A DNA stretch of 64,000 bases from an uncultured Planctomycetota bacterium (GTDB lineage: Bacteria; Planctomycetota; Planctomycetia; Isosphaerales; Isosphaeraceae). Numbering within the stretch: the first letter of the stretch is position 1; each line of letters starts with the position of its first letter. Made by a program: the position numbers. The stretch covers positions 544,001-608,000 of the forward strand of contig CAVTTN010000002.1 in assembly GCA_963737655.1 (NCBI GenBank), read 5' to 3'. Shown here piece by piece: positions 15,001-21,000 of the stretch.

Positions 15001-18000
15001 GTCATCGGCCACGGCCCCGTAGAGCTTCTTCGTGATCTCGCCCAGCGACAACTCACCGCCGAGGGCCAGGACCGGCAGCTTGAGCTTCGTACTCGCCCAT
15101 TCGGCCACCTGCCGGGCATCCTCGGGGAAGGCCCGGTAATGGGCGAACCCGGCACGTAACCCGCCGGGAGCTGAGTAGCAGCGGACGTACTCGGCGATCT
15201 CCTCCTCGCCGATCGCCGCCTTGTTGTAGGCGAAGGTCTTGTAGAACCACGTCAGGTACGTCCGCTCCCGCCCCGCCACGAGGGCCTCCGGCACGTCGGG
15301 GGCCTGGTGGAACATGAAGTGCCAGAGCATGTGGTTGAGGTCGTCCACCCCCTCGACCTTCACACCCAAGAGCGGGGCATCCACGACCGCCAGTGCCCTG
15401 ACATCACCCGGCCACCGGGCGGCATAGGCGTAGGCGACGGGGCCTCCGAGGTCGTGCCCGACCAGACGGATCGGACCAAGCCCGAGATGCTCGACGAGCC
15501 CACGGATGTCGCCCGATAGCGTGCGTAGGTCATAGCCGGTCTCCGGCCTGGAAGAGTCGCCCAGGCCCCGCAGGTCGGGGGCGATGACCGTGTAGCGCCC
15601 GGCCAGGGCGGGCATTAACCGTCGCCACTCGAACCACGTCTGGGGCCAGCCGTGCAGCAGGACCACGGGATCGCCTTCGCCGCCGATGACGTAGTGGACC
15701 TGAACGTCGTCGAGTCGGCAGACGTGGTGGGCGAATCTCTCGGAGAACGGCATGTCGGCGTCCTCGGTCATGTCGGACTCCCCCTCATCGAGCCCCGGCA
15801 TCCGGGGGCATCCGCCTCAACCGCAGCCCGGCCCACCCGTCGCACCGCTAGCCGTTGGGCCGGATCTCGATGCCGTACTTCGGGGCGACCGAGGCCATCT
15901 TCTCCAATTCCTGGGGCGACGGGGGCGAGGGTTTCGCCGCCGGATCGGTGACGACGGTGCCCGCCTCCTCGAACATCTTCTCCATGCCCGCCGGGGCCAC
16001 CAGGATCAGCATCCGGGCGTCCGCCTGCGTCTCGTTCTTGAAGGTGTGGAGGACGCCCCTGGGGACGTTCAGGAACGATCCCGTGCGGGCGATCACCTTC
16101 TGGCCGTCGGCGACGAAGGTGATCTCCCCCTCCAGGACGTAGAAGCCCTCGTCCTCCCGGCTCTGCTGTGCGGGGGTGGCCCGCCGCCTGGGGGCACGAC
16201 GGCCTCCCAGATAGCGTAGCTCCGGCTAGTGTCCTCCCCCTCGGACAGGAAGGTGTAGAGGTCGCCAGCGACGGCGATCTTTTTCCCCTCACCGGGCTGG
16301 ACGACCTTGGCCTCGGCATGATCGCTCATCGGTCTCTTGCCCCTCGGAACAGGTTGTCGCCCTCGATTTTCCCCGACATGAGTCCCGTGGCGACAAATTT
16401 TTTGGGAAAGCTCGCCGCAGCTTACGTGCCGAGCTTCGGACTTCGGGCCGGGCAGACCGCAAAGATGCCGGGTCGTCCTGCGAACCGAACCGACCCCGAT
16501 CCTGTCCGACGGAGGAGGCTTCGTGGACAGTCGGATCGATCGTCAAGCTCGGGTGAGCCTCCCGATCGGAGGCAATTTCGTGGAAGCCGTGGTCTTCATA
16601 GGGCTGCAAGGGGCGGGGAAGTCCACGTTCTGCCGGGAACGCTTCTTCCACAGCCACGTCCGCATCAGCCTGGACATGCTGAAGACCCGCCATAGAGAGG
16701 GTCGTCTGCTGCGAGCCTGCGTCGAGGGCCTCCAGCCCTTCGTCGTGGACAACACGAACCCCACGAGGGCCGAGCGGGCGATATACATCGGGGCAGCACG
16801 GGATGCCGGGTTCCGGGTCGTCGGGTACTACTTCCGGTCCCGAGTCGAGGATTGCCAGCGACGGAACGAGCGGCGATCGGCGGATCAGAGGGTGCCGCTG
16901 AAGGGTATTCTCGGGACGGCGGGCAGGTTGGAACTTCCCACGTTGGACGAGGGGTTCGACGAACTCCGCTACGTCAGGATCGACGAGTCGGTTGGCTTCG
17001 TGGTCGAAGGGTGGCGTGATGAAGATCGATGACCTCGATGGCCGGATGCGGGCGTTCGAGGCGGTCCTGGACCCGACGGTGCTGCCCGGCGTGTTCATGG
17101 TGGCCCGCCTGGACGGGCGGAATTTCACCCGCCTGACCAAGGAACTCCACCCTTTCGAGGCTCCCTTCGACCGGCGGTTCCACGACCACATGCTCAGGAC
17201 GACCGAGCACCTGATGAGCGGCTGCGGGGTCAAGGTCGCCTACGGCTACACGCAGAGCGACGAGATCAGCCTGCTCTTCGGGCTCGAAGCGGATGGCTTC
17301 GGGCGGCAGACTCCGCAAGCTGCTGTCGATCCTCGCTGGCGAGGCCAGTGCCCGGTTCACCCTGCTCCTGAAGGCGGCGGCGGTGTTCGACTGTCGGATC
17401 TCGCAACTCCCCTCGGTCGAGTTGGTCGTCGATTACTTCCGGTGGCGTGCCGAGGACGCCCACCGCAACGCCCTGAACGCCCATTGCTATTGGCTCTTGC
17501 GGAGGCAGGGCCGGGATGTCGGCCAGGCCACCGAGGCGTTGCGGGGGCTGTCCACGTCGGCCAAGAACGAGTTGCTCTTCCAGGGCGGCATCAACTTCAA
17601 CGACCTGCCCTCGTGGCAGAAGCGGGGTTCGGGACTGTACTGGGAGGAGTTCGAGCGGCCCGGCGAGAACCCCGTCACCGGGGAGCGGGTGGTGGCCAGG
17701 CGTCGGCGGATCTGCCACGAACTCGAACTGCCCGTGAAGGACGCCTACTCGGCGTTCCTCCGTGACCTGATCGAGAAGACGGGGGCCAGCCGTGGGCAGG
17801 TCGCATGAGGAGTTCGTCAAGTATCCCAGGACGCCGCACCTGTTCGGCTCGAAGGGGACGGATGACGACAAGCACATGGGCGAGGCCGAGTCGTTGCGAT
17901 TCGTCGCCGACCGTTCGCTGATCGTCGAGGAGAAGATCGACGGCACGAACGTCGGCATCCACTTCGCCGCCGACGGCAAGATGGCCCTCCAGTGCCGGGG

Positions 18001-21000
18001 GCACCTGATCACCGAGGGGATGCATCCGCAGTACGACCTGTTCAAGCAATGGGCCGTCGTCAAGCGTCCCGTGCTCGAAGATCGGCTGGAGGATCGCTAC
18101 ATCCTGTTCGGCGAGTGGGCCTATGCCCGGCACTCGGTCCACTACCGGAGGCTCCCTCATTATTTCTTCGAATTCGACATCTTCGACAAGCAGGCCAGGG
18201 CCTTCCTCGACCTGGCACGACGCCTGGAGTTGCTCGAAGGCTCGGGAATCCAGACGGTCCCGGTGCTCCATCGAGGGGCACTCGACCGGGAACGACTCCT
18301 CGCTCTCATCGGGCCGTCCCGCTTCGACAGCCAGTTCGAGAACCCGATGACCAAACACACCGACAACCTCATGGAAGGGCTCTACCTGAGGACCGAAGCG
18401 GGCGGGTTCGTGACCGGGCGGGCCAAGGTCGTCCGGCCCGAGTTCGTGGAGAAGGTCAAGCGGAGCGAGCACTGGCAGTACCAGGCCATGAGGCCCAACC
18501 AACTCAAAGAAGGGGCGGATCTCTGGTCATGAACTGGGACGACCTTCGGAAAGCCACGCTCGATGACATCGTGGCCTGGGCCGGGGACCAGCCCTGGGCC
18601 GAGGTGATGGCGGCATGCGGCCAGGACGCCGGGTGGCACGCCGAGGGGGACGTCTGGACCCACACGCAGATGGTCTGCCACCAACTGCCGGAGCTTGAGG
18701 GCTGGGCGTCTCTCGCCCCTCAGGAGCGGACCGTCCTGATCTTCACGGCCCTGTTCCACGACTCGGGCAAGCCGCTCACGTCGCTGGTCGATCCGATCTC
18801 CGGGCGGATCATAACCCCCAAGCACGCCGTCAAGGGGGAACACCTCGCCCGGTCGGTCTTGCGGGACCTCGGGTGCGACCTGCCGACCCGAGAGGAGATC
18901 GCCCGGCTGGTCCGGTTCCACGGACGCCCGCCGTTCCTCCTCGAAAAGCCCGATCCGGCCCACGAGGTCGTCTCGCTCTCCTGGCTCCTCAGCAACAAGC
19001 TGCTCTACCTTTTCGCCCTCGCCGACACCCGTGGTCGCAGAACCGCCGAGATGGCCCGACCCGAGGAGAATCTCCACCTCTGGAAACTCGTCGCCGAGGA
19101 GAACGGCTGCTTCGATCGCCCGTATCCGTTCGCCAACGACCAGGCACGCTTCCTGTTCTACCGCCAGGTGGAGCCGAACCTCCACTACGTCCCCTTCGAG
19201 GACTTCCGCTGCACGGTGACGATGATGTCGGGGCTCCCCGGCTCGGGCAAGGACACCTGGCTGGCGACGAATCGCCCCGAGCTTCCCGTCGTCTCGCTCG
19301 ACGGGGTACGATCGGAACTAGACATCGAGCCGACCGACGACCAGGGCGAGGTCGTCCAGGTCGGCAGGGAACGGTGCCGGGAATTCCTCCGCTCGGGCCG
19401 GTCGTTCGCCTTCAACGCCACCAGCCTGCTGCGTCTAACCAGGCAACGCTGGATCGACCTGTTCGCCGACTACCAGGCCCGGATCGAGATCGTCTACGTC
19501 GAACCCCCCTTGTCGAGCATCCTCGCCCGGAACAACAGGCGGAGGAATCCTGTCCCCGAGAAGGTCATCCGAGGGCTTGCGGCCAGGTGCGAACCCCCGA
19601 CGATGACCGAGGCTCATGGATTGTCGATGAGTGATTGATAAACCCGATCGCCAGCGAATGGATGTCATTCATACGGCATCGTAAATGTGCTTCGCAACGA
19701 GGACACGATGGGCAAGGTCTACGGGCGGTTGGACGACAAGCTGGTCGAGTTCATAGGGCGGCAGCACGTGTTCTTCGTCGGCACGGCACCGGATGCCCCC
19801 GACGGCCATCTGAATATCTCGCCCAAGGGGTTGGATACCTTCCGCATCCTCGGGCCGAACTCGGTGGCCTACCTCGACCTGACCGGCAGCGGGATCGAGA
19901 CGGTCGCCCACCTCAGGCAGAACGGGAGGATCACGATCCTGTTCTGCGCCCTCGAAGGCAGACCGCTCGTCGTGAGGCTCTACGGGAGGGGCGGGGTCGT
20001 GGAGCCCTGCGACCCGGAGTGGGGTGGCCTGATCGCCGAGTTCCCCGAATATCCCGGTGTCCGCTCAGTCATCGTCGTAGACGTCGAGCGGATCGCCGAC
20101 TCGTGCGGCTACGCCGTGCCCCTCTACGAGTATAAAGGCGAGCGGTCGCAGTTGATCGCCTACGCCGAACGGAATGGGCCGAAGGGCATGGAGGCGTACA
20201 AGGCCCAGAAGAACAGGTCGAGCATCGACGGAATCGCCGGGTTGCGGTCGGCGGGGGGAGACGAGCGATGAGTCCGAGCGACTCGACGATCAGGGTGGTG
20301 GACGCCGGTGGCGAGGCGAGCCTGGGACTTGTCGAGCACCTGTTCCGGTCGTATGCCGCTGAATTCGCCGCATCGATCGCCGAGACGCTCTGCTTCCAGG
20401 GCTTCGATGCCGAGGTCGCCGGTCTTCCGGGCCGATACGCCCCGCCGTCCGGGTGCCTGATCCTGGCGATCGATGGGGACATCGCCGCCGGGTGCGTGGC
20501 AATGCGGGACCTCGGCAACGGCACATGCGAGATGAAGCGACTCTACGTCACACCCGAATATCGTGGCCGGGGCCTGGGCAGGTCCCTGGTCGAGAAGGTC
20601 GTCCGCAGGGCCGAGCGGATGGGCTACCGTCGGATGGTGCTGGACACGATGCCCGAGATGGCCGGGGCCGTCGCCCTCTACCGGGCCTGCGGGTTCGTTG
20701 TGACCGCTCCCTATTGGGATCATCCGGCGGGGCGGGCCGTCTTCATGGAGAGGGCGCTCAGCGGAATTCGGCCATCCTGAGAGTTGCCCTACGAGGAGGT
20801 GGGGTGATCGATACGACCTGAGAGGCAGACGGGCTCAGGAAGGCGCACAGTCAGAATTGATTCATGACCTCAGGCAATATAATTCCCTTTCATGAGTGGT
20901 GGCCAGTCGCCAAGAGGAACTGTACTACATATTTATCTATTGATTGATTTTTTGATTACGTAAGATTTGGCAAACGAGTCGTGACCGGAGCGGCCAGCCA

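Follow-up and report, generated by a model that had tools for sequence, protein, structure and literature searches.

A planctomycete operon joining kinase, Thg1-like, ligase and HD-Pnk genes: a putative two-module tool-kit for RNA-end repair

In this study, four genes encoding a P-loop kinase (K1), a Thg1-like protein (TLP), a minimal RNA-ligase-like protein (LIG) and an HD phosphoesterase-polynucleotide kinase fusion (HD-Pnk) appear to form a single translationally coupled operon in a stretch of 64,000 nt from an uncultured planctomycete, the whole of which is hereafter called the window. The cassette fuses two modules that are already known, kinase plus Thg1 and ligase plus HD-Pnk, the latter from Runella and Deinococcus. 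We consider it moderately probable that the operon unites two separable RNA-end repair modules, K1-TLP and LIG-HD-Pnk, and the cassette offers a testable setting for the role of a 3'-5' RNA polymerase, the TLP, in bacteria.

Layout of the operon and its proteins

The four genes lie on the + strand in the order K1, TLP, LIG and HD-Pnk, each overlapping the next, by 14 nt (K1/TLP), 17 nt (TLP/LIG) and 4 nt (LIG/HD-Pnk), and it is from these overlaps that the coupling is read. A preliminary description had announced four overlapping or abutting genes on one strand, and they were found where it had placed them, with agreeing Pfam matches. Two further genes lie downstream, and their membership in the operon is uncertain. 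The features are as follows.

16569..16573, + strand: Shine-Dalgarno-like GGAGG, read from the sequence, 6 nt 5' of the GTG at 16580
16580..17032, + strand: K1, stand-alone polynucleotide-kinase-type P-loop kinase, 150 aa (AAA_33; longest ORF from 16523)
17019..17808, + strand: TLP, Thg1-like 3'-5' nucleotidyl transferase, about 262 aa (Thg1 and Thg1C; two frames as assembled)
17301..17310, + strand: site of the TLP frame break, one surplus base (DNA alignment with relatives)
17792..18532, + strand: LIG, minimal ATP-dependent RNA-ligase-like adenylyltransferase, 246 aa (RNA_ligase PF09414)
18529..19638, + strand: HD-Pnk, N-terminal HD phosphoesterase and C-terminal polynucleotide kinase, 369 aa (HD and AAA_33)
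19687-20271, + strand: PNPOx-like gene, downstream of HD-Pnk (Pfam)
20268-20780, + strand: GNAT acetyltransferase gene, downstream of the PNPOx-like gene (Pfam)

The start of K1 is most likely the GTG at 16580, since GGAGG stands upstream and 18 of 18 relatives start there. K1 matches AAA_33 over 16523-17029 (53.2 bits, Pfam) and the kinase part of the NCBIfam model PNK-3'Pase (45.8 bits, the whole-protein cut-off of that model being far higher), and its homology to the HD-Pnk kinase half is supported by 27% identity (E 5e-5) and by hhalign (98.1%). Across 19 K1 sequences no variation is seen in the P-loop G..GK, in the Asp of the SLD motif, or in DNT and RN..R. LIG matches RNA_ligase PF09414 over 17792-18529 at 120.6 bits, and the motif I lysine K48 (EEKxDGxN), E108, E195-G196, R210 and R215 are invariant in 71 sequences, K212 being nearly so. 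The LIG sequence found no match among solved chains, and its AlphaFold model (pLDDT 92) has the predicted fold of an RNA ligase: the best matches included the RNA ligase of Naegleria (5cot/6vt4, E 3e-9), REL1, archaeal enzymes of this class from Palaeococcus pacificus and others (8ucg, 2vug) and T4 Rnl2, and DNA ligases appeared only from E 4.6e-5 among the matches listed.

HD-Pnk carries HD (22.9 bits, cut-off 22) and AAA_33 (69.6 bits) Pfam matches within 18529-19635, and in 72 sequences H45, H77-D78, H99, H131 and D166 of the HD part and the P-loop G235..G240-K241 and D258 of the kinase part are invariant. End-healing activities of HD-Pnk were reportedly described by Munir and Shuman in 2017. 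The HD part also matches, at E 0.003, the HD region of chains named 'Poly A polymerase' (3wfp and entries related to it), and the domains of the Runella protein are outlined in PMC6097658. Judged from the sequence, the catalytic motifs of the window's copies are intact.

The frame break in TLP

As assembled, TLP is split between two frames, a Thg1 catalytic domain on 17019-17330 (79.4 bits against a cut-off of 29.2, covering positions 3-88 of the 130 in the profile) and Thg1C on 17293-17805 (59.6 bits). The preliminary description had proposed that one frame break divides a normal protein of some 260 aa, which was borne out, and had aptly cautioned that the break might be an assembly error: the window carries one surplus base in 17301-17310 against five of five aligned relatives, and a four-letter step at 17310 opens a continuous frame of 262 aa. 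Among solved structures, the nearest to this read-through protein is an archaeal TLP, that of Methanosarcina acetivorans (5axk, E 1.4e-29), with human Thg1 (3otb) at E 1.8e-21, and across 19 sequences D32, D81 and E82 never vary.

The split is probably a one-base assembly error rather than a true pseudogene, because the surplus base is private to this assembly, TLP being uninterrupted in 18 of 18 relatives and the base at 17305 missing from near-identical contigs of the public runs X1, X3 and X4 (two studies); in X2 the omission was looked for at 17305 and none was seen. Completeness is only 87.74% for this 7.6-Mb chromosome in three contigs, against 99-100% in all 23 same-class genomes listed from the phylum sample, and a neighbouring cupin gene 1.1 kb away is also frame-split, which together point to indel errors. 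A genuine break in a decaying operon, with the cassette functioning, if at all, as K1, LIG and HD-Pnk, is the less probable reading, though one to be taken seriously: the break stands in the deposited assembly, a search for the source reads did not find them, the best-matching run containing just 0.18 of the sampled words, and TLPs are patchily distributed (30 of 401 phylum genomes). In X1 and X4, moreover, one form of contig seems to bypass the TLP body, connecting 17062 to 17765 via 25 different letters, and may come from a relative without it. However, one X3 contig, of 179 nt, lacks the surplus base while differing from the window at only one other position, no second defect was seen in either half of TLP, and the dN/dS of both halves against L001 and L061 (0.21-0.24) is like that of the three intact flanking genes (0.16-0.25).

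Distribution of the modules and proposed function

Among 80 related LIG/HD-Pnk loci, LIG adjoins HD-Pnk in 79, and TLP is present in 19, either before or after the pair, and not seen in 61. In 14 of the loci, which come from several planctomycete families, the genes again stand in the order K1-TLP-LIG-HD-Pnk, one with K1 cut by the contig end, so the layout goes beyond chance; L010 and L026 have this order with extra DNA between LIG and HD-Pnk. TLP and LIG overlap or abut in L001, L012, L033, L036, L010 and L026, and are about 90-110 nt apart in L054 and L046. The PNPOx-like and GNAT genes come after HD-Pnk in just 3 of the 80 loci, those of the nearest relatives (L001, L015 and L060). Five loci have a row on one strand throughout, Hen1-LIG-HD-Pnk-(RlaP x2)-K1-TLP, which is followed by Pnkp in L065, L067 and L072; no Pnkp was found within the available locus DNA of L004 and L006. 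Over all 80 loci the partners counted were TLP (19), K1 (18), Hen1 (17, directly flanking LIG-HD-Pnk), Pnkp (14), RlaP (10), PTH2 (10) and Tpt1 (1), and the presence of Hen1, Pnkp, RlaP, Tpt1 and PTH2 in these rows strengthens an RNA-repair reading.

In a phylum sample of 401 genomes, TLP occurs in 30. K1 lies directly upstream in 20 of 29 TLP-bearing genomes, LIG and HD-Pnk directly follow in two (with one more at 5.8 kb), and HD-Pnk is absent from 21 at E<=1e-20. The majority of K1-TLP pairs stand alone, and the third gene is not constant. On large viral contigs 37 TLP loci were found, with an adjoining K1-like kinase in six, Tpt1 in two and a LIG-like gene within 3 kb in two; HD-Pnk adjoined TLP in none of the 37. 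The two modules are thus separable, given the 61 loci without TLP, the 21 genomes without HD-Pnk and the reversible order, and since most pairs of either kind occur without the other, joint action is not required.

We propose that in the first module K1 would phosphorylate a 5'-OH RNA end, and TLP would activate the 5'-phosphate end with ATP and restore lost 5' nucleotides singly, templated by the opposite strand of the helix, most likely the acceptor stem of a 5'-truncated tRNA. Bacterial and archaeal TLPs restore 5'-truncated tRNAs in vitro (PMC3061083). In the second module the HD half would strip 2',3'-cyclic, 3' or 2' phosphates, the kinase half of the same protein would phosphorylate 5'-OH ends, and LIG, perhaps only with a partner, would close the break. 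We infer that both modules act on the same RNAs, as a joint tool-kit against breakage by metal-independent RNases, putatively ribotoxins or stress nucleases: breaks with both pieces retained would be resealed, and where nucleotides are missing from an end, that end would be rebuilt. Ribotoxin-cut tRNA has been repaired in vitro by Pnkp-Hen1 and by Pnkp1-Rnl-Hen1, the ligase of which requires a partner for activity (PMC4411300). A point against this reading is that the window's genome also encodes RtcB, which alone could seal 2',3'-cyclic-P/5'-OH breaks. Hen1_L and PNKP_ligase gave no match in this genome, which is 87.74% complete.

The preliminary description had read the cassette as one line of healing, refilling and sealing. 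Its gene content and RNA-repair context stand, but a single obligatory pathway, in which HD-Pnk and K1 heal, TLP refills 3'-5' and LIG joins the rebuilt 5' end to an upstream fragment, seems unlikely. The tight coupling at the module junction, where the end of TLP and the beginning of LIG overlap, and the order kept in fourteen loci speak for it, and a rebuilt, helix-bound 5' end beside a retained 3'-OH fragment would be a substrate never offered to the orphan ligase. However, the modules can occur apart and in either order, rebuilding of a tRNA 5' end leaves no upstream fragment to be joined, two kinases per operon suggest two entry points, and the LIG-HD-Pnk pairs without TLP in 61 of 80 loci imply that the substrate of LIG cannot depend on TLP. 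Nor did the sealing step it had assigned to the ligase find backing in the two studied family members, from Runella and Deinococcus, which self-adenylylate and sealed none of the DNA or RNA nicks offered (PMC6097658; PMC1997131).

Repair of DNA or mixed DNA/RNA strand breaks, with TLP working on some other primer-template, is less probable still. The Deinococcus DRB0100-DRB0098 operon has been interpreted in this way (PMC1997131), and a reference within PMC6097658 titles the Runella HD-Pnk a DNA/RNA end-healing enzyme, but LIG belongs by family and predicted fold with RNA ligases, DNA ligases matching far worse, all TLP activities described in the sources consulted concern RNA, and the neighbours in related loci are RNA-specific. 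Most improbable of all is a housekeeping role of TLP in tRNA maturation, by adding G-1 to tRNA-His or by editing mismatched acceptor stems at the 5' end, with the repair-like neighbours incidental. While certain TLPs add G-1 or aid tRNA-His maturation in heterologous tests (PMC10275265, PMC3061083), such roles look unnecessary here, since G-1 opposite C73 is genome-encoded in tRNA-His and acceptor pairs 1-3 are intact in 44 of 44 plausible tRNA genes, and presence in just 30 of 401 sampled genomes fits poorly with an essential maturation step.

Relation to known systems

The two-module tool-kit that we favour builds on published associations, and the novelty claimed in the preliminary description was too wide. 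Its own caveat that the kinase-Thg1 link might be in print proved apt: Anantharaman, Iyer and Aravind (2010, Biol Direct 5:43; PMC2904730) described polynucleotide kinase-Thg1 operons, proposed tRNA repair and inferred that the kinase supplies the 5'-phosphate required by TLP. As in the window, a Pnk-family P-loop kinase directly adjoins a Thg1-like gene in these operons, with RNA ligase and Macro as occasional partners. The supplement gives a kinase, then Thg1, then three unnamed genes for Planctomyces limnophilus, and the sole ligase-linked example listed is from Coprococcus (RNA_ligase, Thg1, Thg1_C, Macro), where a single HD gene lies upstream in divergent orientation. In contrast to the loci studied here, the available text mentions neither a fused HD-Pnk nor Hen1, Pnkp or RlaP as a neighbour and does not describe the four-gene order.

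Ligase/HD-Pnk cassettes are likewise on record, as a pair with overlapping ORFs in Runella slithyformis (PMC6097658) and in the DRB0100-DRB0098 operon of Deinococcus radiodurans (PMC1997131). By description, the ORF of a small ATP-dependent ligase runs into the start of an HD-kinase fusion with the same domain order as in the window, whereas Tpt1 and an MTase-HIT protein accompany the pair in Runella and K1 and TLP do so here. The Pnkp-Hen1 and Pnkp1-Rnl-Hen1 systems bring kinase, phosphatase and ligase activities to ribotoxin-cut tRNA (PMC4411300), as is predicted for the window, in which, however, the phosphatase is an HD domain, LIG belongs to a different ligase family and TLP adds a nucleotide-restoring polymerase that those systems lack.

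TLP3/TLP4 of Dictyostelium discoideum, which edit mitochondrial tRNA 5' ends, share family and chemistry with TLP, namely templated 3'-5' rebuilding of acceptor stems, but this editing is constitutive maturation of genes with encoded mismatches, and the tRNA genes of the window's genome are without them. The phage RNA-repair sets of Iyer et al. 2021 (PMC7824862) list Thg1 among nucleotide-restoring parts, and the jumbo-phage sets, like the window, combine Thg1 with ligases, kinases and phosphoesterases, together with RlaP, a CCA-adding enzyme and PTH2, although they are phage-borne and loosely clustered, unlike the cassette described here.

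Organisation of the cassette and properties of its proteins

Four co-directional reading frames occupy 16523-19638 on the + strand and encode, in this order, a stand-alone Pnk-type kinase (K1), a Thg1-like 3'-5' polymerase (TLP), a minimal RNA-ligase-like enzyme (LIG) and an HD phosphoesterase fused to a polynucleotide kinase (HD-Pnk). A four-gene operon had been claimed here in the preliminary description, and it proved to be real and conserved, its gene frames, Pfam matches and overlaps all being confirmed.

Pfam matches along the cassette (window coordinates)
16523-17029, + strand: AAA_33 (K1), 53.2 bits
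17019-17330, + strand: Thg1 catalytic domain (PF04446), 79.4 bits, profile 3-88 of 130
17293-17805, + strand: Thg1C (PF14413), 59.6 bits
17792-18529, + strand: RNA_ligase (PF09414), 120.6 bits
18529-19635, + strand, residues 58-136: HD, 22.9 bits (cut-off 22)
18529-19635, + strand, residues 230-357: AAA_33 of HD-Pnk, 69.6 bits

Overlaps of 14, 17 and 4 nt at the K1/TLP, TLP/LIG and LIG/HD-Pnk junctions, the last between HD-Pnk and the ligase frame directly upstream of it, indicate that the four genes are translationally coupled. G+C content is even along the cassette (0.62-0.68) and falls only past 20.5 kb. The GTG at 16580, which is preceded by GGAGG and used as the start in 18/18 relatives, is most likely the true start of K1. 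An Rfam scan of 13000-22000 returned nothing but one sub-threshold snoRNA look-alike, a sigma-70 promoter scan gave 0 sites, a terminator scan gave 1 site vs 2.3 expected, and 0 families of the PADLOC-DB 2.0 defence models matched K1, TLP, LIG or HD-Pnk at E<=0.01.

K1 carries the invariant G..GK P-loop and Asp of the SLD motif expected of a polynucleotide 5'-kinase of the T4 Pnk/PNKP type, shares 27% identity with the kinase half of HD-Pnk (hhalign 98.1%) and, judged by its sequence, is a stand-alone paralogue of that half. It also matches the kinase region of the NCBIfam PNK-3'Pase model at 45.8 bits, under that model's whole-protein cut-off. Complex prediction for K1 and TLP, run on the pair from L001 (a locus of an HD-Pnk relative) with its own alignments, scored 0.00, a 'no answer' that counts neither way. 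In TLP the catalytic palm domain of Thg1 precedes the C-terminal Thg1 domain, and the protein aligns over the full length of solved TLPs. When read through its frame break with a four-letter step (P0002), the best solved match was the Methanosarcina acetivorans TLP 5axk (E 1.4e-29), followed by human Thg1 3otb (E 1.8e-21); by these E-values the protein's nearer relatives are TLPs, not the eukaryotic tRNA-His guanylyltransferases. D32 of the LDGRNF motif and D81 and E82 of the SDE motif, which align with the corresponding motifs of 5axk and 3otb, are invariant in 19 sequences, and we take them to be the metal-binding, catalytic carboxylates of the palm.

LIG has 246 residues, all of them in an adenylyltransferase domain, and shows the conserved motifs of ATP-dependent RNA ligases (covalent nucleotidyltransferases). 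The 71 sequences compared (65-88% identity) all keep K48, D50, G51 and N53 of motif I (EEKxDGxN) as well as E108, E195, G196, R210 and R215, and K212 is nearly invariant; the names of motifs I, III, IV and V are our own assignment. A sequence search of LIG against solved chains gave 0 matches. Foldseek searches with the predicted model (pLDDT 92) returned a Naegleria RNA ligase first (E 3e-9), then REL1, RNA ligases of Palaeococcus pacificus and other archaea, and T4 Rnl2, at query-normalised TM-scores of 0.47-0.58 for the top matches, with DNA ligases appearing only from E 4.6e-5; the predicted adenylyltransferase fold is thus nearest to RNA ligases. HD-Pnk is a single polypeptide in which an HD phosphoesterase at the N-terminus is joined to a P-loop polynucleotide kinase at the C-terminus, and 72 sequences show no variation in the histidines and aspartates of the HD part, in the P-loop or in the Asp of the kinase; in a sequence search against solved structures it gave weak HD-region matches only. 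End-healing activities of HD-Pnk are said to have been described by Munir and Shuman in 2017.

The frame break in the Thg1-like gene

In this assembly TLP is not read in a single uninterrupted frame: the frame shifts within 17301-17310, and DNA alignment shows one extra base (~17305-17310) in the window vs 5/5 relatives. A programmed frameshift was rejected because every relative is read in one frame (18/18 related TLP genes). TLP occurs in 30 of 401 genomes sampled from the phylum, and the within-contig split of its match is found only in the window's genome, which comprises a 7.6-Mb chromosome and two small contigs at 87.74% completeness, as compared with 99-100% in the 23 listed genomes of the same class.

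We consider the split to be probably an assembly indel. Contigs from three public sequencing runs of two studies (X1, X3 and X4) omit the base at 17305, the contig of a fourth run (X2) does not show the omission, and one 179-nt contig without the base differs from the window in just one other letter. The best public run shares only 0.18 of the sampled words of the stretch, no RNA run was listed among those matching it, and all four runs are partial matches rather than source reads. Both TLP halves have dN/dS values of 0.21-0.24 against L001 and L061, the same as K1, LIG and HD-Pnk (0.16-0.25). A recent true frameshift, which would make a pseudogene of this genome's copy only, is a possible though somewhat doubtful alternative. 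A contig form in X1 and X4, in which 17062 is joined to 17765 via 25 other letters, counts against the assembly-error reading; it may represent a relative without the TLP body between K1 and LIG, and, at a contig similarity threshold of 85%, may thus stem from another organism.

A second frame break lies ~1.1 kb from that of TLP, in a cupin gene on the - strand (15848-16329), 300 bp upstream. This gene is split near 16150-16170, where its N-terminal part stops after PPGGGPPPH and the Cupin_2 match (51.8 bits) goes on in another frame.

Gene neighbourhoods in relatives, viruses and the window's own genome

A search with HD-Pnk recovered 131 relatives, and the best 80 of 131 loci, nearly all from Planctomycetota, were taken for comparison. 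Since many of these loci lie on short contigs, the gene counts are lower bounds.

Genes found at the best 80 of 131 HD-Pnk loci (lower bounds)
LIG adjoining HD-Pnk: 79/80
Small SEC-C-motif protein: 20/80
TLP: 19/80
K1: 18/80
Hen1: 17/80
Pnkp (kinase-metallophosphoesterase-ligase): 14/80
RlaP: 10/80
PTH2: 10/80
NIF phosphatase: 3/80
Tpt1: 1/80

The K1-TLP pair stands ahead of LIG-HD-Pnk in 14 of these best 80 of 131 loci and behind it in 5. The cassette was also found in the cultured strains Novipirellula rosea JCM 17759 (L033), Novipirellula sp. SH528 (L036) and Bremerella cremea JCM 17758 (L054). Linkage to proven repair genes is seen in L004, L006, L065, L067 and L072, in which Hen1, LIG, HD-Pnk, K1 and TLP form a row on one strand, with two RlaP genes before K1 in L067. 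Pnkp comes next after TLP in L065, L067 and L072, and was absent from the DNA available for L004 and L006. These rows comprise eight or nine repair genes (L067:3853-13087, L065:3700-10964, L072, L004 and L006), with gaps of no more than ~130 nt in L067, and in L065, L067 and L072 Hen1 and Pnkp, normally neighbours, are split apart by the other repair genes.

Further genes recur beside the cassette. The SEC-C protein, of ~110 aa with its zinc motif at the end, is encoded just upstream of K1 or LIG (e.g. L027:4776-5117 and L032 ~3688) and may be a fifth component; no SEC-C gene precedes K1 in the window. PTH2 lies near HD-Pnk, directly after it in most of the 10/80 loci (e.g. L037:7124-7519, L020 and L032), and hints independently that the substrates are tRNAs. 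In a Kuenenia-labelled MAG, an IS200-type transposase gene (Y1_Tnp, L026:4579-5046) sits between LIG and HD-Pnk and breaks their otherwise constant overlap.

Viewed from TLP, among 29 other TLP-bearing genomes of the 401-genome phylum sample, K1 was directly upstream of TLP in 20/29, and HD-Pnk occurred anywhere in 8/29, at ligase distance after TLP in 2/29 and 5.8 kb away in 1/29. No constant third gene accompanied the stand-alone K1-TLP pairs in the 20 TLP regions examined, most pairs being alone. TLP relatives were also found at 37 viral-contig loci, many on contigs >100 kb; a K1-like kinase adjoined TLP at 6 of these 37 loci, a LIG-like gene and Tpt1 were each present within 3 kb at 2, and HD-Pnk at 0/37.

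The window's genome holds TLP, a PF09414 ligase and RtcB in one copy each. No match to Hen1_L (PF12623) or PNKP_ligase (PF16542) was obtained in this genome (87.74% complete) or in 14 control genomes, nor any match to RlaP in the window's genome, so that no Pnkp-Hen1 system was recovered here; Hen1 and Pnkp genes are present at the relatives' loci. After 17 of the 61 aragorn calls had been excluded on account of their implausible lengths, acceptor pairs 1-3 proved intact in 44/44 plausible tRNA genes, and G-1 is encoded in the tRNA-His gene, opposite C73. Because the acceptor pairs are intact and G-1 is encoded, a housekeeping tRNA role of TLP looks unnecessary in this genome, as far as its gene sequences indicate. 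The 17/61 excluded calls, on the contig that carries the window, have implausible lengths or odd anticodons, and a 71-nt tRNA-Lys copy (positions 1543087-1543157 of that contig) is mismatched at pair 4 of the acceptor stem. No tRNA genes were found within the window.

As for the surroundings, a PNPOx-GNAT gene pair at 19687-20780 is shared by the window only with L001, L015 and L060, and GNAT acetyltransferase genes follow repair genes in three unrelated contexts (window 19687-20780, L012:7103-7528 and L093:2493-2915). A gene row on the - strand (8237-13920) encodes a Macro domain protein (13381-13920), a methyltransferase (12721-13353), a DUF2293 protein (11945-12679), a SEC-C motif match (10545-10691) and R2K-clade ATP-grasp proteins (9545-10510 and, partial, 8922-9677). 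Members of the SEC-C and R2K families are also found close to the repair clusters in L054 and L067, and PMC2904730 reported a link between Macro and Thg1 operons. The region 20800-46700 is variable, with many family-less ORFs and a lower G+C at its start (0.56-0.59 at 20.5-21.5 kb); it contains HNH, an IS1 transposase fragment, P63C, two SUKH-1 immunity-type proteins, AAA ATPases, NOV_C and ASCH. A BREX-like defence island on the - strand (47630-59282) includes a BrxC/BrxD ATPase (PF10923, 473 bits) and PglZ; its other genes encode a DEAD/Lhr-like helicase, a ~1258-aa DUF6079 protein and a Schlafen AlbA_2 protein.

Two proposed repair modules and their relation to known systems

We propose that the cassette is most likely two separable modules joined in one operon. 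In the first, K1 would phosphorylate a 5'-OH RNA end, and TLP would activate the 5' end with ATP and put back the 5' nucleotides that were lost, copying from the paired strand. In the second, the HD half of HD-Pnk would strip 2',3'-cyclic or terminal phosphates, its kinase half would phosphorylate 5'-OH ends, and LIG would seal, perhaps only with a partner. Jointly the two modules could cover RNase damage to tRNA-like RNAs, both breaks of which the two pieces are kept and ends short of nucleotides. The activity of TLP and the self-adenylylation of LIG are here carried over from papers on relatives. Templated 3'-5' addition to 5'-truncated tRNA has been reported for TLPs of B. thuringiensis, M. 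xanthus and archaea (PMC10275265, PMC3061083, PMC11957112), and TLPs restore 5'-truncated tRNAs in vitro (PMC3061083). According to a 2025 preprint (PMC11957112), a physiological function is established for two TLPs only, both from Dictyostelium, and the substrates of the M. xanthus TLP, the bacterial enzyme examined in that work, are unidentified.

The preliminary description had read the operon as a dedicated RNA-end repair pathway in which healing, 3'-5' refilling and sealing form a single line. The tight TLP/LIG junction would fit such a line; however, the modules are separable and their order is reversible, and once the 5' end of a tRNA has been rebuilt, the upstream piece to be joined is missing, which makes this reading unlikely. 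Quite unlikely, too, is a single machine for gap repair of structured RNA in the reverse direction, in which the ends are healed, TLP rebuilds the 5' nucleotides on the intact strand and LIG, the orphan ligase, seals the rebuilt end. Ordinary nicks would then not be joined by LIG because what it really acts on is the TLP product held by partners, and the scheme, if true, would give a bacterial TLP its first physiological role and the LIG/HD-Pnk family the substrate it lacks. Repair of DNA breaks, on the other hand, draws on the Deinococcus reading and on the description of HD-Pnk as a DNA/RNA end-healing enzyme (PMC1997131, PMC6097658), but the RNA-ligase fold of LIG and the RNA-specific neighbour genes speak against it, and we regard it as very improbable.

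The conserved operon ties TLP to LIG/HD-Pnk and would make both the function of TLP and the natural substrate of the widespread LIG/HD-Pnk pair testable. In some relatives it is placed between Hen1 and Pnkp. What is new is the fusion of two orphan repair modules in culturable hosts, together with the finding that in relatives these modules lie among Hen1, Pnkp and RlaP. No publication joining Thg1 with HD-Pnk, or Thg1 with Hen1 and Pnkp, was found in the full texts searched, a set outside which Munir & Shuman 2017 and Burroughs & Aravind 2016 lie; 'Hen1' occurs once in PMC3061083, in the reference list only. A kinase, Thg1 and a ligase acting in tRNA repair is an idea sixteen years old and hence no new principle, so the gain is limited to improved experimental access and a clearer view of how the modules are arranged.

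That idea goes back to Anantharaman, Iyer & Aravind (2010), who found bacterial Thg1 genes most persistently linked to a P-loop kinase belonging to the family of polynucleotide kinases and, in some cases, to a Macro protein or RNA ligase, and proposed tRNA repair (PMC2904730). The caveat in the preliminary description that the kinase-Thg1 link may already be in print was therefore well placed; its operon call was right, but its interpretation largely repeats what was inferred in 2010 and treats the pathway as more of a unit than it is. The supplement of that paper lists a planctomycete with a kinase, then Thg1, then unnamed genes, with Coprococcus as the sole ligase-linked case. Thg1 was later counted with those members of the RNA-repair sets of jumbo phages that restore nucleotides (Iyer et al. 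2021, PMC7824862). In Pnkp-Hen1 and the related Pnkp1-Rnl-Hen1 complex, ribotoxin-cut tRNA is repaired in vitro and the ligase is active only with its partner (PMC4411300). Deinococcus DRB0100 self-adenylylates and, like the Runella ligase, which forms ligase-AMP, sealed none of the substrates tried (PMC1997131, PMC6097658). In gene layout the window cassette is like that of Runella, where ligase and HD-Pnk are likewise encoded by overlapping ORFs, the ligase ORF overlapping the start of HD-Pnk in both, and PMC6097658 names just the two domains of HD-Pnk.
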